From the IMG/VR virus record IMGVR_UViG_2831870349_000001: a stretch of 64,000 nt of DNA; one strand, given 5' to 3'. The DNA is from a virus. Lineage: Duplodnaviria; Caudoviricetes. Below, piece after piece: positions 10,849 to 30,056 of the stretch; position 1 is the stretch's first letter, and each line of letters starts with the position of its first letter. The notes beneath the pieces are model-generated. The model was not told the DNA's origin. It was given only the letters and a program-made list of their open reading frames with translations, and did not search any database. The position numbers and the translations under genes were made by a program.

Positions 10849-11286
10849 ATGGCGACGACACATGTATTTGGACCGGGGACAACTCCCGGCGCGGGCGGCA
10901 GCTTGCCGGCGGAAGTGCGGATCGCGTATGATCGGCGGCTTCTCAAGGCGGCGCGCCCAAATTTGATCCACGCGCAGTTTGCGGACGATCGGCCGATTGA
11001 CAAGAACGCCGGAACGACCATGCAGATGCGGCGTTTTGAGCTGCTGAGTCCCGCGACTTCGCCGCTCTCCGAAGGCGTTACGCCGACGGGCAACAACTTG
11101 ACGGTAACGCCGGTGACGGTAGGCATCGCGCAGTACGGAGACTTTATTCAGGTCTCGGACGTGCTGACGTGGTCGGCGATCGATCCCATTCTGACTCAGG
11201 CGGCCGATATCCTCGGCTTCCAGGCCGGACAAACGATCGATCAGCTCGCGCGTGATTTCATGAGCACCGGCACCAATGTGCATTAC
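10849..11286 (+). pseudogene. N4-gp56-family major capsid protein, 5' half only (disrupted by prophage insertion)
   Basis: YDRRLL...LSEGVTP...QYGDFIQVSD...AIDP...LGFQAGQTID...GTNVHY; capsid-like text stops after about 146 aa and the frame reads through to TAA 11373. Confidence 0.85.
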
Positions 11287-11308
11287 CGAATACATCAAGT
11301 TGATTGGT
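11272..11308. other. Putative attL of the serine-integrase prophage
   Basis: Junction where capsid similarity ends; imperfect IRs ACCAAT...ATTGGT and ATGTGCATT/AATACAT around 11285-11288; about 100 bp from the integrase 3' end. Confidence 0.6.
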
Positions 11309-11384
11309 CGCGGCGCGGAGTGGTGATTTTAGCTGTTCAAGCTGGGGATTTCAGGTGGCGTCGAGGGAGTTAATATTTTTCGCA

Positions 11385-12962
11385 CTACAGCTGAGGAATG
11401 CGGAAATCCACCAACTTTTTGTCAGCGGAAACCAGGATCCCAGCAAGCCAATCCTGAAGGAATGCGCGCTTTTCCTCGGTGGTGTGCTGATTGCTCTGGA
11501 TCATCACGAGCAGGCGATGGGCGTCGAAAGGCTTCAGGAGCTTCAGTGGACGCGCGGTCTCGGCGATCGCGAGCTGCTCCAGCAGCAGTGTCTTCGTGCG
11601 CTCGATTTCGGCGATGGCGTTTCCCATCTGATCGAGCGTAATGTAGCCGCGCTGGTTCTGATCGGAGAGGGCCATGATGCGTGTTGGGATCAGGTCAAGC
11701 TCTTTGCGTATGATTTGCGGGTCGGGGTGCGGGGACGGCGCCTCAAGCGGCGGCGGCTCCAGGAGGCGTTCGGCGAGATGTGGATGCTCGGCGAGCAGTT
11801 CCACGATCCCGCCCTCGTTCCGGATCCGTTCCAGGCTTTCAATAACCATTCGCCTAATCTTACCCTCCATGATGTTGAAACCCGGACACTCCTGCGATGG
11901 GGCAAGTCCGGATCCCTTCGCGCGGTACATTCCCATGCGAACGGAGCAGACGTAGCAGGCTTCGCGCTTGCCCGTTTTTGGACTGCGGATATGGGTGTGC
12001 AGGACGCTCTTGCGTCCTGCTTCGACGCAGTGCGGGCAGAGCAGGAGACCGCCGGCGAACATGGCGTCAATCTCCGAGATCTTCCCAGGGCGGCGGGCCT
12101 CTACGAGGATTTGGGCCTGGGCGAAGGTCTCGGCGGTGATGATGGCCGGATGGGCGCCGGGAAAGACATCGCCATTCAATTTACACTGGCCGGTATAGAC
12201 GATGTTTCGGAGCATGTGGGAGATCGTTTGCGCCTGCCAGCCGTCGAGGTAAACGTTGCGGCGCGCGCCGTTCGTGCCGGGTGGACGGATCTTCATGGCG
12301 TTCAGCTGCCGGGCGAGATCGACGAGCATGGCGCGCTGTCCGACGTACGTCTCGAATATCCATTTGACCCAGCGCGCGGCCTCATCGTCGAGCGCCCAGC
12401 CGGCGCCGCGCACGCCGGGCTCGGCATAACGGTAACCATAGACGGGCGGACCGTGCTGGCGACCTTTATTGGCGGCCGCGCTGTGGATTCCCTTTTTGAG
12501 TTCCGTCGAAAGATTATCGCTGTGAAATTCCGAGACGCACTCCATAACGCCTTCGATCAGCTTCTCGGAGGGATCGTCCCCGCCCACCCATGGCTCGGTG
12601 ACGCTTTCCACCTTCACGCCATATTGCTTGAGGAGATGCTTGTATGTAACAGCGTGCGTACGGTACCGAAAAACGCGATCGGATTTATGGATTAGAAAGA
12701 CATCGTACTCGCCGGCCTTGGCGCAGGTGATCGCCTTTTGGAACTCGGCGCGCTGATCGCCCTTCTCTCCCCAGGCGCTGATACCTCCGTCCTGGAAGTT
12801 GTGCGTGACCACGCCGCCGCGCGCCGCGACATAGGCGATCTGCTGCGCTTCCTGCTCGGGAAGGGAGAGATCGCGCTCGACCTGGCTTTCTTTGCTGACG
12901 CGGCGGTAAATGCAGTACCGAAGCGGGGTGAAGGAAAGGTGGACTTGTTTCCTCGTGGTCAT
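11385..12962 (-). CDS. int: Large serine recombinase (phage integrase)
   Basis: Catalytic YRRVS, DGGISA, DRVFR; recombinase domain (PVYGY, NIVYTG, HPAII); Zn ribbon CPHC/YVC; coiled coil. Confidence 0.95.
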   Translation of the reverse strand: MTTRKQVHLSFTPLRYCIYRRVSKESQVERDLSLPEQEAQQIAYVAARGGVVTHNFQDGGISAWGEKGDQRAEFQKAITCAKAGEYDVFLIHKSDRVFRYRTHAVTYKHLLKQYGVKVESVTEPWVGGDDPSEKLIEGVMECVSEFHSDNLSTELKKGIHSAAANKGRQHGPPVYGYRYAEPGVRGAGWALDDEAARWVKWIFETYVGQRAMLVDLARQLNAMKIRPPGTNGARRNVYLDGWQAQTISHMLRNIVYTGQCKLNGDVFPGAHPAIITAETFAQAQILVEARRPGKISEIDAMFAGGLLLCPHCVEAGRKSVLHTHIRSPKTGKREACYVCSVRMGMYRAKGSGLAPSQECPGFNIMEGKIRRMVIESLERIRNEGGIVELLAEHPHLAERLLEPPPLEAPSPHPDPQIIRKELDLIPTRIMALSDQNQRGYITLDQMGNAIAEIERTKTLLLEQLAIAETARPLKLLKPFDAHRLLVMIQSNQHTTEEKRAFLQDWLAGILVSADKKLVDFRIPQL

Positions 12963-13051
12963 TTAGGGGAATCCGTGCGATATTTAAAATTAAAACGGCC
13001 TCCCGTATTGGAAGGCCGAGTAAGTAAAATTGCCGTTATTGTCTGAACAAT

Positions 13052-13774
13052 TTATTTTGGAGGTGTCGGATATTCAGCTTCCCATCGCAGTGACGTCATT
13101 ATGGAATGATACACGTTGAAGATGAAGGACTGAACCAACACCACCATATAAAAAAACACGGATGATACAAACACTATCCCGATCTGAGCCAAATACCGCT
13201 TGCATTCTCCAGGGTCTATCAATACGCGATTGACGAAAATTGAGAGTAGGCCAGATGGAAGAGCAAATGCCTTTACCAGATAACAGGTGAATATAAAGAA
13301 CAAGATCACGGTAAAGATCTTAATAAACCTGAAGAAGGAACCCTTCAAATAACTGAGACCCGTTTTCTTGTCAATGTGCTGCGCCATCTGTAGGAAAAGC
13401 TCAGGCTTTACCAGAGTAGCGAAGATCGTAAATCCAGCTATGAGGAAACCAAGCAGTGACGCTCCAAAGTTCAGCCCAAGATCTGACCAGCTTCGGACCT
13501 TATCCGCCAGAACGTGAGTGGACTCAGGGGTATATACGGCATATAAAACGTTCAAGAAGACAATTAGCCAAGTCGATGAAACATTGAACTTGCTTTCCTT
13601 GATATGCCGTATCTGAACCCAAATGTCCCACAGATCTTTTTCTTCTGTCAGGCTGGCAGGGTTGAACGGTCTATCTTTACCCGGCTCCGATGTTGAATTG
13701 TTCTTGGACAGCCGCAATTTTGGATTCAATGATTTGTGCGTCTGCTTCAGGGGTCTCATCAATGTGAACTCCAC
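13052..13774 (-). CDS. Four-TM membrane protein, candidate defence effector (start uncertain)
   Basis: Several hydrophobic helices (ASLLGFLIAGFTIF); low GC; overlaps the upstream gene. Confidence 0.7.
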   Translation of the reverse strand: MEFTLMRPLKQTHKSLNPKLRLSKNNSTSEPGKDRPFNPASLTEEKDLWDIWVQIRHIKESKFNVSSTWLIVFLNVLYAVYTPESTHVLADKVRSWSDLGLNFGASLLGFLIAGFTIFATLVKPELFLQMAQHIDKKTGLSYLKGSFFRFIKIFTVILFFIFTCYLVKAFALPSGLLSIFVNRVLIDPGECKRYLAQIGIVFVSSVFFYMVVLVQSFIFNVYHSIMTSLRWEAEYPTPPK

Positions 13775-14783
13775 GCCTCACGAAGGCTCCGAATGCGGAA
13801 AGCATTCGCCGCATTAAGATTCCGGCGTTTTCGGTTCGGGAAATAACATTTCCTTCCACGTCCGGACTGCCGCCATCTCTATTTTCGCGGCTTTCGAGCG
13901 GCAATGTGATTCGGGTCTTGTAATCCGTCGCGCCCCCACGAATCTCAACCCCCGCTTCGTCAAAACCGACCACCGAGATATGTGAATTACCTTGGGCTGT
14001 CGCCGCGCTCAACTGGTTGATTGCCTCCTCACGATTCAGACCTTCGGTGTTTTCGTGAGACAAAGCCGTCCTGTCCGATCCTATTGCTTCTTTCTTCTCC
14101 CGGACATCGTCAAAGAACGGATCATTGTCGTTTTCATCATTTGTGTCCACCAGTTCAATTCGAACGGAAACGAGCCGGGACATCTGCTGAATGTAGGCCC
14201 TGAAGTCATCTTCACTTGAGAGAGAGATAATTTCCAGGGTGAATCGGCCATACGTTCGGCGCGTAGCGCTCTTGGCCGCGTTGATTGCGGTCTTGGTAGG
14301 ATTCTTTCTAGATTGTACCTCAGCGGCAGCTTCGGCTATCCGATCATCAACATACTGCTTGTAATACCGTCGAATGTTTCGGGTTACGACGTTCTTGAAG
14401 GATCCAAGAGGAGGCGCCTCGGGGGTCTCATGGTAGTAGAGAAGCTTATGGTTCCTTAATATCAGGACAAAGGAAGCGGAGGTCGCATAAGGAGTTTCAC
14501 TAAGGCTTTCCACCAATCCAAGCTCAGGGTCAAAGACTTGTACGCTCCGATGCCTCGTGTCTTGGATAAAAGTGCCGACCAAACACAGTTCATCGCGGCC
14601 GTCAAAGGGCAACATCTCTAATCGGGTTTCATAGAGAAAATATGTGCTCGACATGAACTCATATTTTTCAGGATGCGAAAGTAGGGCTGGCAGGACGACA
14701 TCGTTAGCGAGATCAAGAAGATTGGTGTCTTCGCCAAACTTACAAATGAAATTTGCGAATTCTACGTAAGGTTCCCATGCCAT
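13677..14783 (-). CDS. DUF4747-like soluble protein, candidate defence partner
   Basis: 368 aa with SFVLILRNHKLLY motif; paired with a TM gene in a low-GC moron next to the integrase. Confidence 0.55.
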   Translation of the reverse strand: MAWEPYVEFANFICKFGEDTNLLDLANDVVLPALLSHPEKYEFMSSTYFLYETRLEMLPFDGRDELCLVGTFIQDTRHRSVQVFDPELGLVESLSETPYATSASFVLILRNHKLLYYHETPEAPPLGSFKNVVTRNIRRYYKQYVDDRIAEAAAEVQSRKNPTKTAINAAKSATRRTYGRFTLEIISLSSEDDFRAYIQQMSRLVSVRIELVDTNDENDNDPFFDDVREKKEAIGSDRTALSHENTEGLNREEAINQLSAATAQGNSHISVVGFDEAGVEIRGGATDYKTRITLPLESRENRDGGSPDVEGNVISRTENAGILMRRMLSAFGAFVRRGVHIDETPEADAQIIESKIAAVQEQFNIGAG

Positions 14784-14825
14784 AAATCAATTATATTCCT
14801 TCTGAAGGTAACCGTCACAGGTTAA

Positions 14826-14845
14826 ATTATTGATCGATCAATATT
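14826..14845. promoter_or_regulatory. Dispersed palindrome copy 1 (ATTATTGATCGATCAATATT)
   Basis: Intergenic; matches four other copies. Confidence 0.75.
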
Positions 14846-15121
14846 TCAGCGCTTCTGCATCGCCTTATTCATGGCGTCGATATCTTTTTGATTGTTCCGT
14901 TCCATCGTTTGCTGATTGAGCGGCGCCCCTGGGCCTGAAATTGCCTGTTGCATCAGAAGCACAGCATCTTTGAGTGTTGGACGGTGCATGTGCGGCCCGA
15001 GAATGGCCGACGCGATCAGGCCCGTCGCCCAGGTCGCAATCTTGCGCTTGGACCAGCGTTCGCCGCGCTTCAGGAGCCGCGCGGCCCAGCGTTCAATAAA
15101 ATCTGGATTGATCATATTCAT
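14846..15121 (-). CDS. Small hypothetical membrane-associated protein
   Basis: ATG overlaps the upstream stop; one hydrophobic segment. Confidence 0.5.
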   Translation of the reverse strand: MNMINPDFIERWAARLLKRGERWSKRKIATWATGLIASAILGPHMHRPTLKDAVLLMQQAISGPGAPLNQQTMERNNQKDIDAMNKAMQKR

Positions 15122-15837
15122 TACCTGGGTGAAACGTAGCCGCCTTCGAATAACAATGGGCCTCGGCAGTGAGCGCATGTCATTTCGCGGCGATCCTCGT
15201 TAGCGATCAGGACGATCGAACCATTGCAGATCGGGCATAAACCGATATGCATATTTCGCCAGCGATATCTCTCCCCAGCTAACTCCTTCTCGTCGAGAGA
15301 GCCAACCCGGCCGAGGAGCGGCTTCCCTATGCCCTCATAGATCGCCCACAAAAAGGCGCCGCAGAGCGGGATCCCGAGTATCGACCAGATGCCTCCAACG
15401 TAAACAAGGAAGGGTCCAATAAGTCCTGCCCACCAGAATATCCAGATTGGGACGATGGTGAAACCTCCGGATCTTTCCTTCGTCGCTTCCCGAATCGAAC
15501 GTGTCGCCTGCTCGTCAATCTGCTGAGGTGTGGCCTGGTTGAACTTTACGGCTCCCGGACGCCACGCGCTAACAGTCTTCTCAAGGGGGTCTGCTGGCGA
15601 GACAAGAAGCGCGGTCGGTGCGTGAACGACAATGAGTGGAGAACCCGTGAGGGGCGCGTTACATTGCTTGCAAATCTCAGTTCCGGCATCGTTCAGCAGT
15701 CCGCAGGTTGAGCAATGGTTATCCTGTGGGGTAACGGCTGGCGCAGCGGCCTTGGCCGCCGGCTTCCCATATTTCTGACACCGCGCGCAGTCGAGATCGA
15801 ACGCCGTCATGATATAGCCGCAGTCGGGACATTCCAT
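15121..15837 (-). CDS. Zinc-ribbon membrane protein
   Basis: Multiple CxxC pairs and two TM helices; GAGG RBS; typical of the immunity region. Confidence 0.7.
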   Translation of the reverse strand: MECPDCGYIMTAFDLDCARCQKYGKPAAKAAAPAVTPQDNHCSTCGLLNDAGTEICKQCNAPLTGSPLIVVHAPTALLVSPADPLEKTVSAWRPGAVKFNQATPQQIDEQATRSIREATKERSGGFTIVPIWIFWWAGLIGPFLVYVGGIWSILGIPLCGAFLWAIYEGIGKPLLGRVGSLDEKELAGERYRWRNMHIGLCPICNGSIVLIANEDRREMTCAHCRGPLLFEGGYVSPR

Positions 15838-15854
15838 ACGGTCGACCTCTGATA

Positions 15855-16253
15855 TTACCTCACTGCAAGCTTGCATAGGATGTGGCGAATTTGGGCCGCG
15901 TCAAGCCCTGGCTGAAGCGGAAGATGATCTCCCCATAATCCATGATCACATTCGTAATCCAGGCAGGCGCCCGCCCAGAGCAAATGGTGGGCGATCTCGT
16001 GCCGGATACCGTGAGCGATGGTGGTCGGCGCGTAGTGAAAGTTAATCACGATGCATCCACGATCAGTAGGAGTGTAAAAAGCAGCCCCATATCTAGGATT
16101 TCTGTCTGCGACCATTTCGATCCCAAGCCCACGCGCCACTCTGATGCCTGACATGACTTCGTCGGCGACATAGCCGTCATACAACATTTCGAGCTTCCGA
16201 TGCAGGTTCTTCCCGATACAATCCAGGTCAATCCCGTATACATCCATGTGCAA
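15855..16253 (-). CDS. ImmA/IrrE-family metallopeptidase (anti-repressor protease)
   Basis: HEIAH zinc motif; directly downstream of the repressor. Confidence 0.75.
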   Translation of the reverse strand: MHMDVYGIDLDCIGKNLHRKLEMLYDGYVADEVMSGIRVARGLGIEMVADRNPRYGAAFYTPTDRGCIVINFHYAPTTIAHGIRHEIAHHLLWAGACLDYECDHGLWGDHLPLQPGLDAAQIRHILCKLAVR

Positions 16254-16256
16254 CGC

Positions 16257-16709
16257 TTACTCACCCTCCGTACCGTCCTCAAAGTCATCATCGAATTTTG
16301 AGCGGTGTCCGATTGCCGTATCTGAATCGCTTTCCAAGATTGCCCTGAGGACATTCTTCGCCAGCGGAATTTTGTCTTGGCGTCCACTAAGCTGTTCGAA
16401 GAGATGATCGAGTTCAGCGTCACGCTTTCGGGTAATTATTCGCTGTTCAACTTTAAAGCCAGCAGCATCTAAACCGGAAGCTATAAGGGCCTGAACAAAA
16501 TCTACATCTGAGCCGGGCGGGGCCAGCGCCCTAGCGAGTTTTTCGACAACTTTTTTTGAAGGCGCCCGAGCGCCTCGTTCCAGGGCAGATGCGTAGCCTT
16601 GGGTGATATTAGCCATATCGGCCAAATCATCTTGGGATAACTTTTCAGGGTATTGGCGACGCTGCTCGGCCAACCATAGGCTGAACGTGCTTGCGTTTTC
16701 CTTGCTCAT
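16257..16709 (-). CDS. XRE-family prophage repressor
   Basis: LSQDDLADMANITQGYASALERG HTH; divergent from the early operon. Confidence 0.88.
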   Translation of the reverse strand: MSKENASTFSLWLAEQRRQYPEKLSQDDLADMANITQGYASALERGARAPSKKVVEKLARALAPPGSDVDFVQALIASGLDAAGFKVEQRIITRKRDAELDHLFEQLSGRQDKIPLAKNVLRAILESDSDTAIGHRSKFDDDFEDGTEGE

Positions 16710-16771
16710 AAAGTCAATCTCAATTTCTAAACAGGCTATCATTTTGTCTCCTAATGGAGATAGACACAGTA

Positions 16772-16848
16772 TAAAACAATTTGTTGCAAAAATAAAGCGA
16801 CAAATTGTTTTAAAACATATTGCTATCCCCAATACAATATGTTATAAT
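16772..16848 (+). promoter_or_regulatory. Switch region: operators and rightward promoter
   Basis: AACAATTTGT/ACAAATTGTT palindromes; TTGCTA(16820)-17nt-TATAAT(16843), ATG 6 nt after the -10. Confidence 0.75.
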
Positions 16849-16854
16849 CCCTCC

Positions 16855-17112
16855 ATGCCTAAGCAATTAGAAGTCTATTCGGAATTGCGAAAGCTCCGCG
16901 ACGCCATGAATAACGGCAAGGGGTGCAGCGCACAAGAATTTGCCAACATGGTGGCCGCCATCCTTGGAGAGAAGGAGCGCAGCGGCGGATCCATCATCGC
17001 GATCGAGAACCGTGGCGTAAAAGATTATTACGTGATCCGTGCCCTCGCGTCGATCCATGGGATGACGAATGAGGAGATGGCAGAATTGGTGAACCCTGAC
17101 AAAATTAAATAA
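16855..17112 (+). CDS. Cro-like HTH regulator, probably leaderless
   Basis: First gene divergent from the repressor; SAQEFANMVA...SIIAIENRG HTH-like. Confidence 0.7.
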   Translation: MPKQLEVYSELRKLRDAMNNGKGCSAQEFANMVAAILGEKERSGGSIIAIENRGVKDYYVIRALASIHGMTNEEMAELVNPDKIK

Positions 17113-17159
17113 CAAATTGTTCTAAAAATCTTGCTATTTTTAGAACAATTTGTTATAAT
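17110..17159 (+). promoter_or_regulatory. Second early promoter within a 20-bp inverted repeat (two operators)
   Basis: TAACAAATTGTTCTAAAAAT...ATTTTTAGAACAATTTGTTA; TTGCTA(17131)-17nt-TATAAT(17154). Confidence 0.8.
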
Positions 17160-17193
17160 ATCCTCAGTCCACTCTACTGAGGAGCAAAAAAAG

Positions 17194-17574
17194 ATGTCCG
17201 CCGCCGCATATTTCCGCAATCTGGTCGAGGTGAATAACGAAGTTGCCGCCTTTGAGCGCCGAACCCGGGAGATCGAAGCCTCGCACCGCGCGCAGCTCCT
17301 CAGCGAGCAGGTGGCGGCAATCCAGAGCGACTACGAAATCACGGTCTCGGACGATCACATGCTGCTGACGCACATGATGGAGCAGGACGACTTCGCGAAG
17401 GTCTTCCGGGTTCCCGGCACAACCGACGTGGACCGCGACCGAACCCAGGTCGGTCACCGCACCCCGTTCCTGGCGCGCGCCTTCGAAGTCGTGATCGAGC
17501 AGCGGATCGAGGCGAATCGCCGGGAGCGCCTGGCGGCTCAGAAAATGAACGCCAGCCGAAAGGCGGCGGCGTAA
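17194..17574 (+). CDS. Hypothetical early phage protein
   Basis: GAGGAG RBS; coupled to the next gene. Confidence 0.7.
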   Translation: MSAAAYFRNLVEVNNEVAAFERRTREIEASHRAQLLSEQVAAIQSDYEITVSDDHMLLTHMMEQDDFAKVFRVPGTTDVDRDRTQVGHRTPFLARAFEVVIEQRIEANRRERLAAQKMNASRKAAA

Positions 17575-17888
17575 TGGGAACGGCTGCTCAGGCGCTTGGC
17601 GTGATGGTCCCGGCGGGCGTCACGGAGTTTGACGCGGACCTCGATCTGCTCGCGATCCTCATCTTCCATGGGGCGTTGACGCAAGACGAGGCGATGGAGG
17701 AGCGGGAGGCGCTGTCGCTTCGCATGAACGCCTACTTCGCCGATCAGATGAACGCCTACTTCGCCGATCAGATGAACGCCGACGGCGGCGAGTGCGATCT
17801 GGTTCTTCGGTTCTCGTCGGGACATTGCGGTACGGACGAGGAAGCCGCTGCTGAACCATTCTTTTGTGAACTGCCGCTCGCGGCTTAA
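17574..17888 (+). CDS. Hypothetical protein with in-frame 24-bp duplication
   Basis: TAATG coupling; MNAYFADQ repeated twice. Confidence 0.6.
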   Translation: MGTAAQALGVMVPAGVTEFDADLDLLAILIFHGALTQDEAMEEREALSLRMNAYFADQMNAYFADQMNADGGECDLVLRFSSGHCGTDEEAAAEPFFCELPLAA

Positions 17889-17939
17889 TTGATTTTGTAA
17901 TTATCTTCTGATTGATTTTGAGAGTGTGGGGAGACGTCA

Positions 17940-18161
17940 ATGAAGCAGCCTTTGCGGGTTACATTGTCAACGGCGGACGGGCGGGTGATCATGGAGAGTT
18001 CCGCTCCGGGCGAGCGAATCATCCACGATCGCCTGGAATACCAGATCGCGCTCGCCAGGGAGCTTTTCGCGGCGCGCGGGATCCGCTTCACTGCGGAAGA
18101 CCGCGCCATCATGACACGAAATCACGAGCAGAGGATGCAGGCGGCGGCGAAGGCCGCATAG
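17940..18161 (+). CDS. Hypothetical protein
   Basis: GGAG RBS; phage-like codon usage. Confidence 0.6.
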   Translation: MKQPLRVTLSTADGRVIMESSAPGERIIHDRLEYQIALARELFAARGIRFTAEDRAIMTRNHEQRMQAAAKAA

Positions 18162-18218
18162 CGCGAGTGGAGACGAAGGGCGAATTGCACATTTGAGTTC
18201 GCAGTTTGGGAGGGTTTG

Positions 18219-18452
18219 ATGGCAAAGCAAGCGACGACCGGGCAGTCTCTGACCCGTCAGGAGCGGAACATGCTTCGGATGGCGGCGACAGGCCTGATCA
18301 ACAGAGAAATCGCCAGCCGCGAGGGCGTCTCCAAGCGAACGGTGGACTTTCACCTCTACAACACTTACGAGAAGCTGGGCGTTTCGAACCGGATCCAGGC
18401 GATCAATATTGCGCGCAGCCGTGGGCTGCTGGAGATCTCAGCAGCGGCGTAG
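18219..18452 (+). CDS. Stand-alone LuxR/GerE-type HTH regulator
   Basis: LTRQE...GLINREIA...VSKRTVDFHLYNTYEKLGVSNR. Confidence 0.9.
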   Translation: MAKQATTGQSLTRQERNMLRMAATGLINREIASREGVSKRTVDFHLYNTYEKLGVSNRIQAINIARSRGLLEISAAA

Positions 18453-18570
18453 GGTTGGTTTTAGGATTGGTTAGAGGATTAGTTAGAGGATTAGTTACGG
18501 GCCCGACAAAACAAAACGACCCGGTCAAGCGCTGTGGCAACAGCTCCCGGGTCGTAAGGATCATACGAAA

Positions 18571-19401
18571 ATGACTATACCCCAAAATTCCAATTGCAAT
18601 ACAAATACTGTCCAAAAACCGGTATTTGACCCCAATAAGCACCTGATCGCGGTTCAGGGCGGCCGGAAATATCTTCCCGTGTCCGCCCGCGTCCAGTGGT
18701 TCCGATCCGAGCATCCGGACTGGACAATCGAGACCAACCCGCTCACCATCGACAACGACAAGCAGTTCGCCATCTTCCAGGCGAAGATCTTCAACGCCGA
18801 CGGCCGCCTGATGGCGATGGGCACGAAGAAGGAAGACATCAAGGGCTTCGGCGACTATATCGAGAAGGCCGAGACCGGAAGCGTCGGCCGCGCACTGGCG
18901 CTTTGCGGCTACGGTACGCAGTTCGCACCCGAGCTTGACGAAGTCGCCGGCGGCCGCTTCGCTGACACTCCACAAGGGAGCCGGCATGGCGACGCTGCCC
19001 AGGCGGGACGCTACGGCGACTCGTCGCGCGGCGGACAGGGCCGTGGACAGCGCTCAGGTCATCCCGCCGCACGCCCCGCTTCGGAGTTTACGCGACAGGA
19101 TGAGCAGCCAGAGAGCAGCGAGACCACCGAGGCTCCTGCCGTGAGCACGTCCTGCGCCTCCTGCGACCGAACGCTCAGCAAATCCCAGGCGGACTTCTCC
19201 AAACACAATTACGGCGACGCGCTTTGCCCGGCCTGCCAGCGCGAACGCGGCGCGGCCGAGTCGCCCTCGCCGGCCGCCACGTTTGCGACGCGCCCCGCGC
19301 AATCCTCGACACGTCCCGCGCAATCCTCGACGCGACCACAGGACCGCGAGTTTGAGAGCCAGCGCCGCGAGCGCCTGGAGCGGGAAGGGGGCCGCGCGTG
19401 A
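18571..19401 (+). CDS. Putative single-strand annealing recombinase (Rad52/Erf-like) with C-terminal Zn finger
   Basis: KYLPVSARVQWFR and EKAETGSVGRALALCGYG motifs; CASC...CPAC. Confidence 0.65.
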   Translation: MTIPQNSNCNTNTVQKPVFDPNKHLIAVQGGRKYLPVSARVQWFRSEHPDWTIETNPLTIDNDKQFAIFQAKIFNADGRLMAMGTKKEDIKGFGDYIEKAETGSVGRALALCGYGTQFAPELDEVAGGRFADTPQGSRHGDAAQAGRYGDSSRGGQGRGQRSGHPAARPASEFTRQDEQPESSETTEAPAVSTSCASCDRTLSKSQADFSKHNYGDALCPACQRERGAAESPSPAATFATRPAQSSTRPAQSSTRPQDREFESQRRERLEREGGRA

Positions 19402-19766
19402 ACGCCACTTCCAAAATTCTCAACGTCATGATGGCGATCGGCAAGGCGACGGCGGGCATGGTCATCGCGGAAACATCGCTCTGCCTCGGTCGCGGCTCCA
19501 TGGACGAGTGCCTGACCGCCTACGAGAAGGTTCTCGCGCTCAAACTGATGCTCCACCATCTGCACCTGGAAAAGCATCGCGAAGAGAAGAGCGGCGCCGC
19601 CCCGACCGCGCACGAAGTCGTCCACTCTGCCCAAAACGAGCAACAAAGAAATGATGAGCAGCGGATCAACGACGAAGCGTTCGCGGCGCTCATGTGGCCA
19701 GATCTCGCCGCCGGCGTGGATACGGTTTACGTGCTGCCAAAGCGCCTGCTTCATTCCCAGAATTAA
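19398..19766 (+). CDS. Hypothetical protein
   Basis: GTGA overlap with the upstream stop. Confidence 0.55.
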   Translation: MNATSKILNVMMAIGKATAGMVIAETSLCLGRGSMDECLTAYEKVLALKLMLHHLHLEKHREEKSGAAPTAHEVVHSAQNEQQRNDEQRINDEAFAALMWPDLAAGVDTVYVLPKRLLHSQN

Positions 19767-19790
19767 CGCACCGGCCGAGCGGCCGAGAAA

Positions 19791-20312
19791 ATGGAGATCG
19801 CGATGGAGTTCCTGGATCCCTCACTCGAAAAATCGGATTTATCGGAGACCGATTTTTCAAAATCGAATGCGCCAAAGACCGAGTCGCCGCATCTGGTCAT
19901 GGTTCGCTCAATTCAGAGCTCGCCGGATGTTTTCGCGCATATCGCGTTCAGCGACCGCGTGATGTACTGTCTGGCGGGATGCTCGCTCGCGCTTTCGGCC
20001 GCTTGTGGCCTCGCCGGCGGCGCACTCTTCTACTGGCTCGCGGCGGGGTTCCTGATCCAGGCGCTGATCTTCGCCGTGGCGCCGTGGGAGAACCGGTCGC
20101 ACAAAGCGCGCCTCGCCGCCTGGCGCGAGGAGCAGTCGGCGCTGACGCTGATGGTTGAGATCGCGGAGCCGGTCTCCGAAGAGGATGCGCAGAAAGTTGC
20201 GGGCCCCGTCTTCGTCGAACTTCCGACCTCCTGCCGCCGTCCCGAAGTCTCCGCGATCCGCTCGTTCAAATGCGGCACCCGTCCGGCTGGCAAGAACGGA
20301 GACTGGCGATAA
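19791..20312 (+). CDS. Hypothetical two-TM membrane protein
   Basis: Two hydrophobic helices; in operon. Confidence 0.6.
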   Translation: MEIAMEFLDPSLEKSDLSETDFSKSNAPKTESPHLVMVRSIQSSPDVFAHIAFSDRVMYCLAGCSLALSAACGLAGGALFYWLAAGFLIQALIFAVAPWENRSHKARLAAWREEQSALTLMVEIAEPVSEEDAQKVAGPVFVELPTSCRRPEVSAIRSFKCGTRPAGKNGDWR

Positions 20313-20314
20313 CC

Positions 20315-22798
20315 ATGCTTGCTGAAATCGATACTAAAATTCAGACAGTCGGTCAACTCGCGCCAAGAGAGGCCGGCGAAGGCGAGGATCTGAAGATCTC
20401 CGACAAACTGCGCGTTCTGGCGAACGGGATGCAGGCGGCCATCGATGTCAAGCTTGCCCCTCGCCTTGCCAACACACCCAAGCGTATCCGTGAGGCGGAG
20501 GATGCCGAGCGCGACGCGAAGCGGATGCAGCGCGTCCAGGCATCACTGCAATATCTGGCGGATGCCCACGACGCTGGCACGGTTCCTCTGGTCGTCTCCC
20601 GAATCAAGACGAAGTCGGTCATCGAAAACATTCTCTTCAATACGAAGTTCCCGGACTGGATCGGATCCAGCAGCGAGCAGGGGCGACTACTCGCTGCTGG
20701 CATCGCGACCGCAGCGGATTTTGATGAAGCGAAGAAGATTCTGGAGGCCGCCGCCGAGGACGCCGGCGGGGAATCGAAAGAAGCACTGAAGTTGCGCAAG
20801 CTGATGCGCGGGCTGGTCGGCGTCAACATCCCCGGCTACTTCCCGACGCCGGACGGATTGGTGACGCGCCTTTTGGAGCTTGCCGAGATCGAAGCGGGAA
20901 TGAGGACGTGCGAGCCCCAGGCAGGCAGCGGCCATATCGCCGACCGGATCCGCGCCGAACATCCCGACGTCCCGCTCACGGTGATTGAGATCAACCTTCA
21001 GCTTCGCGAGATCTTATCGGCCAAAGGTTATCCGATTGCGGGGTCCGATTTCCTCGAATGGCGCTCGGAAGAGCTCTTCGATCGATTTGTCTGCAATCCA
21101 CCGTTCGAGCGCGGCGTCGATATCGATCATGTCCGTCACGCGTATGAGTTGCTGGCGCCGGGCGGGCGCCTTGTATCCGTGATGTCCGACGGCGCGTTCT
21201 TTCGGTCCGATAAGAAGGCATCGCTCTTCCAGCAGTGGTTCCGGGTCAATGACGGCGAGGCGTTCGAAGTTCCCCACGGCTCCTTCCTGGAGAGCGATAA
21301 GAAGACGGCCGTCAGCACGAAGATCATCGTTCTGAATAAGCCGGCGGCTCCTGTCTTGACACTGGTCACATCCGTGGGAGAAGCGCGCATCGAAAATAAT
21401 TCGTCAGGCTCTGAGAATTATTCATCGATCAATAATGCTGTCGGCCCTGACACGCAAGATATTCCGCTTGAGAATCTCCTTCCCAATCCTTTTCAGCCGC
21501 GTGACATATTCGCTCAAAAACCGCTGGAGGACCTGGCGCGCAGCCTGACCATAAACAAGCAACTCCAGCCGATTGTCGTCCGCCATGCCGCAAAAGACGC
21601 CGGCAAGTTCGAGATCGCCTGCGGCGAGCGGCGCTTCCGCGCGGCGAAGATCGCGGGACTTGCTTCATTGCGCGCTGAAGTCGCTGTCTACGATGATTTG
21701 CAGATGGCGCGTATCGCGACGGCCGAAAACGATGAGCGTGAGCCTCTCAATCCCCTGGAGCGCGCTCGTGGATATGCGAACCGCGTGAAACTCGGTCAGA
21801 CACAGGCGGAAATTGAGGCGGAGACTGGCGTCGATCAATCTTCCATCAGTCAAACGCTGAACTTACTCACGCTTCCTGAAAGTGTCCAGGATCATCTTCG
21901 CCACGGGCGCATCTCCGCCACGCACGGTTTCAAATTGCTGAAGCTGCGTAAGCTACAGGGGACCGAAGCGTCGATGATCAAGTTCGCTGGAGACGCTTTC
22001 GCCGCGTCCTGGTCCGTCAGCAAATTGGATCAGGTAATTACCGATCATATCGCCGACCTTCAGCGCTCGGCCGCGTCTCCCTACTTCAATGTGGTGGCGC
22101 CAACAATTTCGGCCACCGTCTTCTCTGAGCCGGGACCGATCCCCGCCGCCGAAGTCGAAGCGCCTCCGGCGCCGGCAATGTCAGAACGATCCCCAAATAG
22201 CAACGAGGAGGAAATTGATGGCAGTCATGAGATGGTCGCACAGGACGTATTTTCGTCCGGAGATCCCGTGCCGGTGGTGGCCGCTGCTGGAGCGACTGAG
22301 CATGCAGCGCACGAAGACGCGCCAGCTTCATCATCTGCGGACGACGCGCCTTGCGAAGTACGATCATCTGCACCACATGACACAGTGGACGCACAGGCAG
22401 CCTCAGTACCGGAGGCCGCTACACCGACCGGGCCGGTCGAGGTGCTGATCGGAGAGGATATCCCCTCGATTTGCCACCATTGTCCGCTCAGCGCGGCGAC
22501 GATGGTGAACATTCGTGACGGCGTTCGAGCATCGATGCAGGGGGCGCAGGCTGCCGATCAGACCGATGACCGCACCGTGACACTCTCAAAGGACAGCACG
22601 GACGCGCTCTGGGAAATGGGTCTGACGGCGGATCAGGCAATTGCGGAGCTGCTCGAATACCGCCTTGTCCCAAAGGCCAAGAATGCGCTTCGCATGCTTA
22701 CGGACGCCTATAACGAAAACCATGCTGAAAATATCAATCTGTCCGAGCGCCTGAGCTCCATCGTGCTGACACGCGCCACACAGTCGGAGGGCTTCTAA
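20315..22798 (+). CDS. N6-adenine DNA methyltransferase fused to ParB/Spo0J CTPase-HTH
   Basis: YFPTP, EPQAGSG (SAM binding), NPPF (catalytic), LAPGGRLV; then PNPFQPR, LQPIVVR, GERRFRA, AENDERE and an HTH. Confidence 0.9.
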   Translation: MLAEIDTKIQTVGQLAPREAGEGEDLKISDKLRVLANGMQAAIDVKLAPRLANTPKRIREAEDAERDAKRMQRVQASLQYLADAHDAGTVPLVVSRIKTKSVIENILFNTKFPDWIGSSSEQGRLLAAGIATAADFDEAKKILEAAAEDAGGESKEALKLRKLMRGLVGVNIPGYFPTPDGLVTRLLELAEIEAGMRTCEPQAGSGHIADRIRAEHPDVPLTVIEINLQLREILSAKGYPIAGSDFLEWRSEELFDRFVCNPPFERGVDIDHVRHAYELLAPGGRLVSVMSDGAFFRSDKKASLFQQWFRVNDGEAFEVPHGSFLESDKKTAVSTKIIVLNKPAAPVLTLVTSVGEARIENNSSGSENYSSINNAVGPDTQDIPLENLLPNPFQPRDIFAQKPLEDLARSLTINKQLQPIVVRHAAKDAGKFEIACGERRFRAAKIAGLASLRAEVAVYDDLQMARIATAENDEREPLNPLERARGYANRVKLGQTQAEIEAETGVDQSSISQTLNLLTLPESVQDHLRHGRISATHGFKLLKLRKLQGTEASMIKFAGDAFAASWSVSKLDQVITDHIADLQRSAASPYFNVVAPTISATVFSEPGPIPAAEVEAPPAPAMSERSPNSNEEEIDGSHEMVAQDVFSSGDPVPVVAAAGATEHAAHEDAPASSSADDAPCEVRSSAPHDTVDAQAASVPEAATPTGPVEVLIGEDIPSICHHCPLSAATMVNIRDGVRASMQGAQAADQTDDRTVTLSKDSTDALWEMGLTADQAIAELLEYRLVPKAKNALRMLTDAYNENHAENINLSERLSSIVLTRATQSEGF
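21417..21436. promoter_or_regulatory. Dispersed palindrome copy 2 (ATTATTCATCGATCAATAAT), in the MTase-ParB linker
   Basis: AT-rich island within a GC-rich CDS; encodes NYSSINN. Confidence 0.75.
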
Positions 22799-22802
22799 AT
22801 CC

Positions 22803-24677
22803 ATGACTCCTAAGAAGCCATTTGTTTGCGTGGATCTCTTTTGCGGGGCCGGCGGGATCAGTCAAGGTCTGCGCAATGCCGCCAAGAAGGTTGGCTATAC
22901 GGCGGCGCTTCTCGCGATCAACCACTGGCCAGTCGCGATCGATTCGCATACGCTCAATCATCCAGAGGCCACACATATTTGCGCTCCGGTGGACGGCGCC
23001 AATCCTCGCGAGCTTGTCCCAGGCGGGATTGTCCATCTTCTTTGCGCGGCGCCGGAATGCACCCATCACTCCAATGCGCGCGGGGGTAAGCCCAAGAGCG
23101 AACAAAAGCGATCAAGCGCCTGGGACATCCTTCGATGGGCAGACGCGCTGTATGTTCACCACATCTTGATTGAGAACGTGCCGGAATTCCAGAAATGGGG
23201 GCCGCTTCATCCCTGCACTTGTGGGGTGGAGGAAGGCGCTGAGCACCTGAAATCCTGCTTGATCGGGAAGCCGATCAAAGAAGAGGAAGGCCGCTTCTTC
23301 CGAAACTTTATCCGCAACTTGGAGGAGCTTGGCTATACCGTCGAATTCAAGGTGCTTACCTGCTGCGAATATGGCGATCCAACCAGCCGCAAACGCCTGT
23401 TCATCCAGGCCCGGCTCGGCGGTATCGCGCCTGCCTGGCCGGAAATTACGCACGTTCCCGCCGCTGAAGTCGCGTCGCGTCCAGGGAAGAAGGCTCAGCT
23501 TGTCGCCCGTGACATCATCGACTGGAAACTGAAGGGCACATCGATCTACGATCGGCCGGCTCAGGGCAAAAAAAACCTCGTTGCCGCGACGATGAAGCGC
23601 ATCCACGCCGGTGTTTACAAATTCGCGGGATTGCCATTCCTTGTTCCGAATTTCGGGGAGCGAGAAGGGCAGCAGCCGCGTACGCACTCGATTTATTCGC
23701 CATTGTCCGCCGTCACCAGCCACGGCGCCGGAGCGATCTGCCAGCCGTTTCTCGTCGTGCTCCAGAACCATCGTGATGGTTACAGCCTGGAGAAACCGTT
23801 CCCAACGATCATGACGCGCCGGCAGTTCGGTGTCGCCGAGCCCTACATCGCGCCGATCACGCACACGGGATCCGGGAATCGATGCCGGGGCGTGGATAAG
23901 CCGCTCTTCACCGTTACTGGAGCCAAACGTGGGGAACTGGCGTTACTGGAGCCCTATATGGTGGTCAATCGCAAGAATGCGGACGCACATCCGATGGATG
24001 TTCCCATGCGCGCGCTGACGACCGGTAACATCATGGGAGTTGCGGAGCCTCAGATCGTAACCGACTCGGTTAACGCCTTCCTCGTGAAATATTACGAAGG
24101 AAGTGACGCCGCCTCGCTCGACGCCCCGCTGCCAGCGGTCACCTCGAATTATGAACATCTGGCGCTGATCGAAACTGTTCCTGAATGGAACGAGACGATG
24201 CCGGCGTTCATGACGAAATATCATGGCTCGCACCAGGGGCGAAACGACGGTGATGGGCGCGTACTTTCGGTTGGCTCGCCGCTCCCTGCTCTCGACACTT
24301 CGAATTGCCTGGGTATCGCTGAGCCTAATCTTGTAATCCGACAACATACGCCATTCCTGATCAATTATAACGGGACCGGCGGCGCGCATTCGGTGGACGA
24401 GCCGCTGCTCTCCGCGACGGGGAACGACCGGTTCGCCCTGGTGGCGCCCGAATATCATCACTTGATCGACAAAGGCGACGTCGTCGGCTACCTCGACATT
24501 CTTTACCGGATGCTCCAGCCGCACGAGCTCGCTGGCGGCCAGGGATTTCCGAAGTCGTATATTTTCACCGGGACGCGCGAGGCGCAAATCAAGCAGATTG
24601 GCAATGCGGTTCCTGTTGCGACCGCAGAGGCGCTTTGCACAACGATCTTCAAGACGTTGATGGCGGTGGCTGTATGA
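22803..24677 (+). CDS. DNA cytosine-C5 methyltransferase (long phage type)
   Basis: DLFCGAGG, PECTHHS catalytic motif, ENV, RKRLF, QGFP, QIGNAV; repeated xxPLxTxT units in the variable region. Confidence 0.93.
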   Translation: MTPKKPFVCVDLFCGAGGISQGLRNAAKKVGYTAALLAINHWPVAIDSHTLNHPEATHICAPVDGANPRELVPGGIVHLLCAAPECTHHSNARGGKPKSEQKRSSAWDILRWADALYVHHILIENVPEFQKWGPLHPCTCGVEEGAEHLKSCLIGKPIKEEEGRFFRNFIRNLEELGYTVEFKVLTCCEYGDPTSRKRLFIQARLGGIAPAWPEITHVPAAEVASRPGKKAQLVARDIIDWKLKGTSIYDRPAQGKKNLVAATMKRIHAGVYKFAGLPFLVPNFGEREGQQPRTHSIYSPLSAVTSHGAGAICQPFLVVLQNHRDGYSLEKPFPTIMTRRQFGVAEPYIAPITHTGSGNRCRGVDKPLFTVTGAKRGELALLEPYMVVNRKNADAHPMDVPMRALTTGNIMGVAEPQIVTDSVNAFLVKYYEGSDAASLDAPLPAVTSNYEHLALIETVPEWNETMPAFMTKYHGSHQGRNDGDGRVLSVGSPLPALDTSNCLGIAEPNLVIRQHTPFLINYNGTGGAHSVDEPLLSATGNDRFALVAPEYHHLIDKGDVVGYLDILYRMLQPHELAGGQGFPKSYIFTGTREAQIKQIGNAVPVATAEALCTTIFKTLMAVAV

Positions 24678-25564
24678 AATCAGATCTCATGAACGCAGAC
24701 GCCAAATGCCGACGCCCTGTCCTGAGATATCACGGTGGGAAATGGCGTCTTGCGTCGTGGATCATCAGCCAAATGCCGCCTCATCGCGTTTACGTCGAGC
24801 CGTATTGCGGAGCCGCGTCCGTCCTTCTCCAGAAGCCGCGCGCCTTCGGCGAGGTGATCAACGATCTGGACGGGGAGGTCGTCAATCTGTTCCGCGTGCT
24901 GCGCGAACCGGCGGCCGCGAAGGATCTGATCAATGCGATCCGCCTGACGCCGTTCGCGCGCGCCGAATTCGACACCGCTTACGATCGCAATATCCTGGAT
25001 CCCGTGGAGCGCGCTCGCCGCCTGATGGTCCGGTCTTTCATGGGTTTTTCGTCCAGTGCGTCGGGCAAGGGTAGCAAAACAGGATTTCGATCCTATGCCT
25101 ACCGCTCCTACATGACGCCGGCGGCGGACTGGGCGGGATTGCCGGCCGCGCTGCCAGCCGTGGTGCAGCGGCTGCGCGGCGTGACGATCGAGAACCGGAG
25201 TGCGATTGAACTCGTTCAATCGCACTCCACTCCCGAGACGCTGCTTTATTGCGATCCTCCCTATGTGCGCAGCACCAGGTCTTCGCTACGCTGGCCAGGG
25301 GAGAAAGCGTACGCGCATGAGATGACCGATGACGATCACCGAACCATGGCGGCGGCCCTGAGCTCGAGCGCGGCAATGGTGATCGTGAGCGGATATCGAT
25401 GCGACCTTTACGATGAGATCTTCAACAACTGGATCCGATGTGACCGCGCCGGCGTGATCGCGAGCAATACCGGAAGCGCAACGCGCATGGAATCTCTGTG
25501 GCTTAATCCTGCTGCGGCCCAGGCCCGTGGTCAGCAATCTTTAGAGCTCGAGGTGAGAGCGTGA
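24674..25564 (+). CDS. Dam-like (D12 class) DNA adenine methyltransferase
   Basis: RYHGGK, EPYCGAAS, NDLD, DPPY. Confidence 0.92.
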   Translation: MKSDLMNADAKCRRPVLRYHGGKWRLASWIISQMPPHRVYVEPYCGAASVLLQKPRAFGEVINDLDGEVVNLFRVLREPAAAKDLINAIRLTPFARAEFDTAYDRNILDPVERARRLMVRSFMGFSSSASGKGSKTGFRSYAYRSYMTPAADWAGLPAALPAVVQRLRGVTIENRSAIELVQSHSTPETLLYCDPPYVRSTRSSLRWPGEKAYAHEMTDDDHRTMAAALSSSAAMVIVSGYRCDLYDEIFNNWIRCDRAGVIASNTGSATRMESLWLNPAAAQARGQQSLELEVRA

Positions 25565-26040
25565 GAACCGCCGCGCTTTTCACGCCGGCGGAGAGCGGAC
25601 TGGTCCGCGTCTCAGATCACTGGTACCGAGCCAAAAGCTGCGATGTGAATGTAGTTCCGCTCTTCCAGCGGCATTATAGCTGCCCGAAGCCTAAGGATAC
25701 GCACTATACCTCCGGAATCGCGGGGCCCGGCGAGGACATGACACTGATCACCGCGACCGGTGACGCGCTATTCGTCTGGCGCAGCGAGGAGTTTCGCAAA
25801 GACGACCAGTGGGGCGTGGAGTGCAGCGTATTCCGCAATGAAGGATCCGTGCAGTCCAGTTTGATGATCCGCGAGGCAGTGGAAGCGGCGGTAGTGAAAT
25901 GGAAACCGCAACGGTTCTTCACCTTCGTCAACGCGGAGAAAGTACAGAGCGCAAACCCTGGATACTGCTTCAAGATGGCCGGATGGAGTTTCTGCGGTTT
26001 CACGAAAGCAGGCCTTCATATTCTCGAATATAGGAATTAA
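25561..26040 (+). CDS. Mom-like (GNAT-fold) DNA modification protein
   Basis: RHYS...FRNEG...FTFVNAE...NPGYCFKMAGW resembles the Mu Mom family. Confidence 0.6.
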   Translation: MRTAALFTPAESGLVRVSDHWYRAKSCDVNVVPLFQRHYSCPKPKDTHYTSGIAGPGEDMTLITATGDALFVWRSEEFRKDDQWGVECSVFRNEGSVQSSLMIREAVEAAVVKWKPQRFFTFVNAEKVQSANPGYCFKMAGWSFCGFTKAGLHILEYRN

Positions 26041-26261
26041 AGAAATCTTGAATTTGCGATTTCAGGCGGGGCGGCGGCCTGGATAAATCTAAACGAGCAG
26101 CGCCAGACCGGGGGATTGAGGCGCCCCGGCGAGCAGATGGAACGCCGGCGGATTCTAGTAACACTCGCGGGCCGCAAGAAGTGGGAGCCTCGCCGGGGAT
26201 GCGGCCCGCGAGAACAGATTTCGGACACGAGTCTTGATTTTGGTGATAGGACGACATCGAC

Positions 26262-26729
26262 ATGGCAGGCATCGACATTCGAGACATCGATAAGTACGGG
26301 ACGAAGGCGGCGGAGCAGATCCGCGCACAGATGGGCGTCGCCGCTATTCCACTCCCTGCCAGCAAGTCGGGAAGCGCGCGCACGGATCCTACAGGCGCTC
26401 AGACGGACGTGGATAAGAAGCCTAAATACCGCAATGAACCGGTGGAAATCGACGGCTATACATTCGCATCCAAGCGTGAGGGTAATCGCTACCGACTGCT
26501 GAAAGCGATGCAGATCGCGGGCAGTATTTCGGGACTGGAGATGCAGGTCCCATATCGCTTTTTCGAAGGCGAGCGGCTGATCTTCGAATACATCGCCGAC
26601 TTCCGCTACACCTGGATCGAGAGCGGACAGAAGAGAGTGGAAGATGCGAAGGGTATTCGAACAGCCGTCTTCATGCTGAAGAAGCGCCTGATTGAAGCGC
26701 GACACGGCATCACGATCGAGGAGGTCTAA
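26262..26729 (+). CDS. DUF1064-family PD-(D/E)XK nuclease / Holliday junction resolvase-like
   Basis: KYRN...DGYTFASKREG...YIADFRY...VEDAKG. Confidence 0.85.
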   Translation: MAGIDIRDIDKYGTKAAEQIRAQMGVAAIPLPASKSGSARTDPTGAQTDVDKKPKYRNEPVEIDGYTFASKREGNRYRLLKAMQIAGSISGLEMQVPYRFFEGERLIFEYIADFRYTWIESGQKRVEDAKGIRTAVFMLKKRLIEARHGITIEEV

Positions 26730-26731
26730 GG

Positions 26732-27120
26732 TGACCCGAAAGCCCTGGCCATGCGAGGAAATCGTCAACTGGACGGAGCGGTATCTGCGCACCCGCGACA
26801 GCGATCTCGTGCTTTGGCCGTGGATCGATTTCGAGAAGCAGCCCGCGTGTACGATCGGCAGACAGCCCGGGGCGAAGGGCGCGGTGGTTCCTGGGACCGT
26901 GACGCCCGAAGACTGGACGCGCCAGCTGCTGCGCCACTGGGCGCGCACGGTCGACGCCTACACGAGAGGCGACTTCGACCCGGCAACGTTTGAGGGCAAG
27001 GTGATCGCGCTGAACGCGCTTCCGGCGGAGCGTCTGCTCTTTGCGTATCGTCGGGTCGTGGAAGATAAGAGACGGAGCGCGCCGGCGGCGGCTCAGGAAA
27101 GGGAACTCGTTTACGGCTGA
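26732..27120 (+). CDS. Hypothetical protein
   Basis: GGAGG followed by a GTG start; in operon. Confidence 0.55.
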
Positions 27121-27219
27121 AGCGCCGTGCAGCAAATCACTGTACAATCCTGTGCCCAGAGACCTCTGCCCGATGGGAATGTACAGGGCCGGAAAGTGAA
27201 ATATCGCTTGCTTGCTTAG

Positions 27220-27654: not shown

Positions 27655-27655
27655 T

Positions 27656-28554: not shown

Positions 28555-28555
28555 T

Positions 28556-30054: not shown

Positions 30055-30056
30055 TT

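Follow-up and report, generated by a model that had tools for sequence, protein, structure and literature searches.

A predicted 99.8-kb temperate phage within the major capsid gene of a podovirus-like prophage in an Armatimonadota-like genome

In the stretch of DNA studied here (the window, 64,000 nucleotides of a virus catalogued as IMG/VR record IMGVR_UViG_2831870349_000001), the N4-gp56-type major capsid gene of a resident phage-like element is split by an insert of 99,782 bp, and the two sides of the split can be rejoined in frame. We think it likely that the insert is a 99.8-kb temperate phage that integrated site-specifically in codons 142-144 of the capsid gene of a resident podovirus-like prophage, that its own large serine recombinase (LSR) is the most likely enzyme, that the target was probably already decaying, and that the arrangement is no developmental switch. 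The window corresponds to positions 6388727-6452726, minus strand, of a single sequence of 7,645,051 bp (7.6 Mb) from an Armatimonadota-like host genome; beyond base 64000 we use an extended window coordinate, w = 6452727 - genome coordinate. The split gene and its junctions are laid out as follows.

10849-11373, plus strand: capsid open reading frame (ORF) as interrupted, 174 aa
10849..11271, plus strand: N4-gp56-type major capsid gene of the resident element, 5' part, codons 1-141, from the homologue alignment
11272..11279, no strand: 8-bp common core ACCAATGT at attL, with a second copy at attR (w111054-111061)
11272..64000, plus strand: inserted prophage, the part within the window; the whole insert, 99,782 bp from core to core, extends to w111053
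11283..11298, no strand: P' arm, 16 bp, TTACCGAATACATCAA, a perfect inverted copy of the P arm
w111035-111050, outside the window, no strand: P arm, 16 bp, the exact reverse complement of TTACCGAATACATCAA
w111054-111506, outside the window, plus strand: middle part of the capsid gene, from tblastn and the homologue alignment
w112363-112437, outside the window, plus strand: end of the capsid gene, the last 24 codons and the stop, from tblastn and the homologue alignment

The interrupted ORF matches the Pfam model Phage_capsid_4 over profile positions 52-120 of 262 alone (E 5.1e-5; 24.1 bits, with a cut-off of 27 bits), and the same model run on the whole genome recovers this N-terminal part alone. 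Over its first 146 residues it shares 96% identity with P0001, a 298-aa 'N4-gp56 family major capsid protein' from a metagenome-assembled genome of Capsulimonas sp., and this part has 21 longer relatives of 291-389 aa at E <= 1e-3 among 845 candidates, several of which carry that same name. Similarity to the family stops past ...GTNV (w11280; alignment A1), and the residues beyond it in the ORF (HYRIHQVDW...) are read-through into the DNA of the phage end. With five full-length homologues as queries, tblastn placed the N-terminal part at w10849-11286, the remainder on the same strand at genome positions 6341733-6341188, and the final 28-29 residues at 6340379-6340293. The missing 3' part runs from genome position 6341673 downward; it is on the same strand, 99,782 bp further downstream and 47 kb past the end of the window. 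The left core ACCAATGT opens codon 142, and the right core reads TNVIYANGK... until a stop at w111542; because the codon phase is the same at both cores, deletion of the 99,782 bp between them keeps the frame. The N-terminal and middle parts are identical to P0001 at 132 of 136 and 144 of 151 positions, respectively, and neither contains a stop or a frameshift.

Uninterrupted alleles are also available for comparison. One member of the 90%-identity cluster of P0001 is the allele P0185 (316 aa, from a metagenome contig), which lacks both the phage and a second, intron-like interruption described below, and when the three pieces of the present gene are joined in silico (141 + 151 + 24 = 316 aa) the product aligns with P0185 in one gapless block with 305 of 316 residues identical. 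At the protein level, the near-identical alleles P0185, P0186 and P0001 are all without the phage insert. The insert therefore shares the defining property of gene-splitting elements, namely a position within an ORF whose frame is rebuilt by precise excision. A sequence-only reading of the window had noticed that capsid likeness breaks off in the middle of the ORF, and had proposed that the 3' half be sought beyond base 64000, checked for in-frame rejoining and compared with uninterrupted alleles. The break is where alignment A1 loses similarity, the 3' part was found at the far end of the prophage (w111054) on the same strand and in frame, and the rejoined product is collinear with the uninterrupted alleles.

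Each 16-bp arm lies 3 bp inside its core and the two match at 16/16 positions in inverted orientation; in the 7.6-Mb genome TTACCGAATACATCAA has, besides itself, a single 16/16 match, which is the inverted one at the far end of the insert. When the phage-side halves were joined by script, the rebuilt attP formed a dyad of 46 bp that reaches position 23 on each side of its centre and is symmetric at 21 of 30 positions, a level of symmetry seen in just 3e-5 of 200,000 random genomic 60-mers. The dyad is centred between w11275 and w11276 on a non-palindromic AA dinucleotide, at which the putative crossover would fall (11275-11276). The rebuilt attB is symmetric at 7 of 30 positions and its arms are unlike those of attP. 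It covers G141-T142-x-V144-x-Y146, residues that are invariant in nine capsid homologues of 60-74% identity (alignment A2), and no second attB-like site was found in the genome. An attP and attB laid out in this way are what is expected for serine integrases such as those of phiC31, Bxb1 and A118, and the sites observed here have the same make-up: an imperfect dyad of ~40-50 bp with a non-palindromic centre, and a less symmetric attB. Scans for promoters and terminators at attL gave results no better than shuffles.

Based upon these sites, we propose that the phage LSR recombines its ~46-bp dyad attP with the asymmetric attB by conservative site-specific recombination, attB being the most conserved motif of the capsid family, G-T-x-V-x-Y. 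For as long as the phage stays integrated, no full-length capsid protein would come from the resident; precise excision, for which a directionality factor would be needed, would restore the capsid frame. Capsid expression would accordingly be lost during integration and regained on excision, which presumably still occurs. No recombination directionality factor was recognisable by homology.

The same junctions formally have the layout of a transposon, with 16-bp inverted repeats near the ends and an 8-bp direct repeat that would be a target duplication. Read-level support for the junctions comes from the assembly's own data set alone, which would favour an assembly chimera: attL is spanned by a separate contig build of the isolate's run (record 8, 10745-13500), and that data set is the same as the assembly's. 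Neither explanation is more than scarcely credible. The inverted repeats begin 3 bp inside the duplication and the terminal three bases do not match (GCA against the complement of AGT); no DDE transposase was found among the ~55 insert proteins scanned, and the insert has the terminase and replication-loader layout of a phage. A chimera, for its part, would not produce a symmetric 46-bp site together with an in-frame split.

Two recombinase genes, one at each end of the insert, would converge on attP in the excised circle.

11385..12962, minus strand: large serine recombinase, 525 aa (Pfam PF00239 and PF07508), its 3' end 87 bp from the P' arm
w109926-110981, plus strand: Xer-like tyrosine recombinase, 351 aa, its stop 54 bp before the P arm

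The LSR has Resolvase (PF00239, E 5.3e-20) and Recombinase (PF07508, E 2.4e-15) domains and aligns distantly with the catalytic domain of the TP901-1 integrase (region IYTRVS, E 1.8e-4). Its predicted N-terminal catalytic domain is of the resolvase type and has the nucleophilic serine within a Y-x-R-V-S motif, here YRRVS with S23 invariant in five homologues; Cys309, Cys312, Cys339 and Cys359 are likewise invariant (alignment A3). The protein is intact, collinear with homologues of 508-530 aa, and the sole LSR in the genome, and a helical hairpin at residues 415-469 is modelled confidently. With the integrases of TP901-1, A118/LI, Bxb1 and phiC31 it appears to share the order of catalytic, recombinase, and Cys-rich plus putative coiled-coil parts, and these systems also have a dyad attP of ~46 bp with a non-palindromic centre, as here. 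The sequence-only reading had called a large serine recombinase beside the break, with an imperfect inverted repeat near its 3' end, and had taken the enzyme to be new. The two domains identify it as such, the repeat is present at 11264-11277 / 11303-11316 (14-nt arms, 79% complementary, ~70-120 bp from the LSR stop), and novelty is upheld by an identity of at most 42% to anything found. The closest relatives are metagenomic proteins of 36-42% identity, and identity to any integrase of the phage collection is only 21-23%, to streptococcal phage integrases. XisF and Ccr models scored far under their cut-offs on the LSR. The LSR had no match in IMG/VR or GTDB genome contigs, and a profile scan of the phylum returned 9 of 401 genomes including the window's own, the hits in 8 of the 400 other Armatimonadota being distant LSRs (E 1e-41 to 1e-47).

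Several observations weigh against this account of the integration. The zinc-ribbon model PF13408 of Pfam does not match the LSR, and the structure model of the whole protein is poor (mean pLDDT 54). No attB or attP junction occurs in the assembled contigs of seven sequencing runs (contigs, not reads), and no second case of this LSR-attB pair was found in IMG/VR, GTDB contigs or 400 other Armatimonadota genomes. At 99.8 kb the insert is large and it carries DnaE2, ImuB-like and two SRAP genes at its right end, so it may be composite. Finally, the tyrosine recombinase gene has its stop 54 bp from the P arm and the 8-bp identity block between the inverted arms is compatible with a tyrosine-recombinase core too, which together leave the LSR unproven as the catalyst.

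It is conceivable, then, that the Xer-like tyrosine recombinase at attR carried out the integration, with the 8-bp block as overlap and the inverted arms as core binding sites, although we regard this as clearly unlikely. An identity block of 8 bp amid inverted repeats is the classical core layout of tyrosine recombinases, as in lambda Int, Cre and Xer sites. The gene is moreover transcribed towards the P arm, and the satellites known as helper-embedded phage-inducible chromosomal islands (HE-PICIs), where they split a capsid gene, rely on tyrosine integrases (PMC10111431). Against this, the attB arms are unlike the attP arms (symmetric positions number 10/30 at attL and 9/30 at attR), while simple tyrosine recombinases require four similar arms, and no arm-binding N-terminal domain was detected in the enzyme. 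A dyad of 46 bp is also long for a tyrosine core and typical of a serine-integrase attP. The tyrosine recombinase gene lies amid SOS-mutagenesis cargo, whereas the LSR belongs to a lysogeny module of the usual int / cI / cro kind. The 46-bp dyad, the difference between bacterial and phage arms, the position of the LSR and the Xer-like character of its rival among the cargo all favour the LSR, and we infer that the phage's own LSR is most likely the catalyst.

The remaining genes of the insert on which this account draws are these.

13052-16253, minus strand: low-GC accessory block, next after the LSR
16257-16832, minus strand: cI-like helix-turn-helix (HTH) gene, from HTH/control-protein matches
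16603-17112, plus strand: cro-like gene, from sequence reading alone
20270-25564: three adjacent large DNA methyltransferase genes in the early region, the first fused to a ParB-like domain
41062-41140: tRNA-Ser(TGA), upstream of the terminase gene
41213-41289: tRNA-Thr(TGT), upstream of the terminase gene
44776-46437, plus strand: terminase large subunit (PHROGs phrog_38, 1.6e-99)
46594-47952, plus strand: portal (PHROGs phrog_2662, 3.9e-33)
48098-49537, plus strand: protease-like protein (PHROGs phrog_3244, 1.1e-6)
49675-51147, plus strand: HK97-type major head protein (PHROGs phrog_10, 1.6e-52)
w103312-106539, minus strand: DnaE2, at the right end
w106598-107998, minus strand: ImuB-like Y-family polymerase, at the right end

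The divergent cI-like / cro-like HTH pair (16257..17112) forms a lysogeny module next to the LSR. A DnaC-like loader follows downstream of the methyltransferases and the ParB-like fusion, and then come the tRNAs. After the head module there are large proteins, unnamed but containing domains of the lectin, fn3 and acyltransferase types, and, further right, more PHROG-family genes (into the right third of the insert), a methyltransferase and an HNH endonuclease; most tail-region proteins received no name from PHROGs or Pfam. Because it encodes a terminase, portal, protease-like protein and HK97-type capsid protein of its own, the insert looks like an autonomous temperate phage and not a satellite, and on its gene content we treat it as a temperate phage. 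Two SRAP genes accompany DnaE2, the ImuB-like polymerase and the tyrosine recombinase at the right end, and the whole block (w103312-110981) resembles an SOS-mutagenesis cassette carried by a phage. PADLOC, applied to the low-GC block and three other insert genes, gave HTH matches alone, for 1 of 10 proteins. A tail-fibre-like region of 5.9 kb (w77485-83357) is 81.5% identical to a locus at ~1.77 Mb of the genome, which suggests a second related prophage or a tailocin there.

The resident element has a virion gene set of a different type.

4747-6357, plus strand: terminase large subunit, left of the split
6670-8610, plus strand: portal of P22/SU10 type, its conserved C-terminal part in another frame at 8444-8848

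A probable scaffold gene, recognised by position alone, also lies left of the split. To the right there are two SU10-type adaptor proteins, a GDSL-domain protein, a 997-aa internal-virion-type protein and a weak CHAP match, so that the capsid gene is placed between portal/scaffold and SU10-type adaptor genes. Host genes flank the element at 1798-2970 and from w141714 on, which gives the resident a size of ~30-37 kb without the insert. Its nearest cultured capsid relatives, at 35-37% identity, are those of the Bacillus megaterium podophages Pascal, Pony, Palmer, Pavlov and Pookie, phages of ~40 kb and hence of similar size, and judged by these genes the resident is a podovirus-like prophage of ~30-37 kb. 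The view from which this work started, that of a prophage inside a resident phage-like element, holds on both sides: the insert has its cI/cro-like pair, terminase, portal, protease, HK97-type capsid and two tRNAs, and the resident its terminase, portal, capsid, adaptors and internal-virion-type protein. A search for att-type direct repeats bounding either a nested tyrosine-integrase island or the resident element gave chance-level matches alone.

Several other features of the resident and its surroundings were seen. An interspersed repeat of ~125 bp has two intergenic copies in the resident element (window 10636-10760 and w~122102), none in the 99.8-kb insert and 149 BLAST matches in the genome, and at this repeat the depth in the run contigs jumps to several thousand. 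A transposase gene of the IS256 family (Mutator-type; E 9.1e-103) lies across the left edge of the window (w-1134 to 50).

The state of the resident bears on whether the split could be a programmed switch, in the manner of skin in sigK or SPbeta in spsM, with regulated excision restoring the capsid for a useful resident particle such as a gene transfer agent (GTA) or a tailocin-like one. The perfectly restorable frame, with neither part carrying a stop or frameshift, and the undecayed att arms (16/16) would both suit such a switch. The portal, however, appears to be frameshifted: the C-terminal ~120 residues of 5 of 9 portal homologues align to w8444-8803, in a frame other than that of w6670-8330, and the shift is confined to w8427-8445. 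It could be a genuine mutation or an error of sequencing, and it speaks against a functional target operon. Furthermore, no integrase, replication gene or benefit-type cargo was recognised among the resident proteins scanned, the insert is a full lytic-capable phage and not a reduced element, and close insert-free alleles exist. Since the portal looks frameshifted, no benefit is visible and the insert is fully phage-like, we consider a programmed switch very unlikely. What we see is probably lysogeny at a site inside another prophage that was itself probably already decaying, and a domesticated developmental switch is not favoured.

Gene-splitting serine-integrase elements are well represented by skin, with SpoIVCA, in sigK and by Listeria phage phi10403S in comK. 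A further example is SPbeta, whose recombinase SprA acts where the prophage splits spsM (PMC5499854). The likeness of these three to the present insert lies in an LSR at the end of the element, an insertion within coding sequence, and precise excision that rebuilds the ORF. They differ in that host genes are split and regulated excision has been shown, whereas the gene split here belongs to another prophage.

The capsid gene carries a second interruption close to its 3' end.

w111507-112362 (L004:11639-12494, minus strand): 856-bp intron-like insertion, 46% GC, between a G and a W codon, shortly before the capsid gene ends

This segment has a single copy in the genome. Five alleles of 60-96% identity (the present one, P0001, P0186, P0008 and P0010) share the same 11-residue read-through tail past ...SG, while P0185, P0002-P0007 and P0011 continue uninterrupted with WK.T.GG; alleles with and without the insertion at one site are what would be expected of a group I intron. 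The end of the 5' exon, CUCGGGU, could pair with GCCCGAG at intron nucleotides 42-48, so that the splice site would carry a U.G pair, the adjoining UUCCA could pair with the start of the 3' exon, UGGAA, and the final intron base is G. Predicted P1 and P10 pairings and a terminal G are hallmarks of group I introns, and the P1 stem forms in the minimum-energy fold (z = -2.65; 0 of 200 shuffles fold equally well). Rfam 15 gave no match at E <= 1 over 2.2 kb, and at E <= 10 over 941 bases just two unrelated weak matches, so that a catalytic core (P3-P9) recognisable to covariance models is lacking; blastn of the segment against phage genomes gave no match. A 138-aa ORF on its reverse strand has HTH-like repeats and an end motif that we take to be LAGLIDADG-like, although Pfam did not confirm it, and may be the remnant of a homing endonuclease. 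The segment looks like a candidate mobile group I intron missed by the Rfam models; if it splices, the capsid gene would not be disabled by it.

The position of attB in the most conserved motif of the capsid family makes it attractive to suppose that the phage has adapted to its rival. Under such an 'embedded' strategy the conserved podovirus capsid motif would be its normal attB, and lysogeny would silence the rival or link the phage with late transcription of the rival, in the manner of helper-embedded satellites. The invariance of the attB residues in nine homologues, the lack of another attB-like site in the genome and the co-orientation of most insert genes with the resident late operon all speak for it, and there is a precedent with a tyrosine integrase in the HE-PICIs, which are described as residing most often in the capsid gene E (PMC10111431). 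Nonetheless, there is a single instance, the closest LSR homologues are 36-42% identical, three near-identical capsid alleles (P0185, P0186 and P0001) are insert-free, and a phage that must lysogenise can hardly rely on an attB placed in a capsid gene that belongs to an accessory prophage. We judge such an adaptation unlikely on balance. A fuller form of it, that of a lineage of large temperate phages whose serine integrase has the capsid motif of rival podoviruses as its natural attB, and in which lysogeny itself disarms the competitor and co-orientation lets late transcription report the rival's induction, is rather unlikely.

Relatives of the split gene were sparse in the DNA collections covered. 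The capsid alignment had no match in IMG/VR or genome contigs and, in metagenome contigs, matched just three short loci (L018-L020, 1.3-1.9 kb, 55-71% identity). The N-terminal part appears in the metagenome runs as pieces of 150-210 bp alone, at a depth of 2-4. In the phylum scan, 3 of 401 genomes had a capsid hit; one of them is the genome of the window itself, and the remaining two hits were weak (26-36% identity).

Among systems described before, HE-PICIs come closest in their location, being found inside a late gene of a prophage and most often in the major capsid gene (PMC10111431). The present insert has in common with them the integration in a prophage late gene and a short stretch of identity shared by attL and attR. 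According to that study, however, HE-PICIs are satellites of 10-20 kb without a full set of virion genes, and belong with one clade of tyrosine integrases and the lambdoid prophages of enterobacteria. The insert is instead a phage of 99.8 kb that has a terminase, portal and capsid of its own and probably uses a serine recombinase, and the N4-gp56-type capsid gene that it interrupts belongs to an Armatimonadota-like genome; it lies in a late gene as they do, but is no small helper-dependent satellite. Full-size prophages inside prophages are known from Shiga toxin-producing and enteropathogenic E. coli (STEC/EPEC), where attB consists of segments of 21-121 bp captured from yecE, ompW and ykgJ-ecpE (PMC8112680). 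All host prophages in that study are defective, which may be compared with the apparent portal frameshift here. Unlike here, attB lies outside structural genes in those cases, and no gene is reported to be split and restored (PMC8112680). Our searches of open-access papers and bioRxiv brought up no description of a serine-integrase prophage located in the capsid gene of another prophage.

The arrangement is kin both to phage satellites in prophage late genes and to gene-splitting prophages, with the difference that the insert is a complete phage of 100 kb. This case of a complete 100-kb phage, probably with a serine integrase, splitting a capsid gene in a phylum that has received little study broadens the range of phage-against-phage and phage-on-phage arrangements, and is a natural instance of one attP flanked by two recombinases of different families. 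The LSR is a candidate new enzyme with a defined attP of ~46 bp and a defined attB, and as such a possible orthogonal tool for genome engineering. If the phage does use the capsid motif against its competitor, it would represent a full-phage, serine-recombinase counterpart of the helper-embedded satellites.

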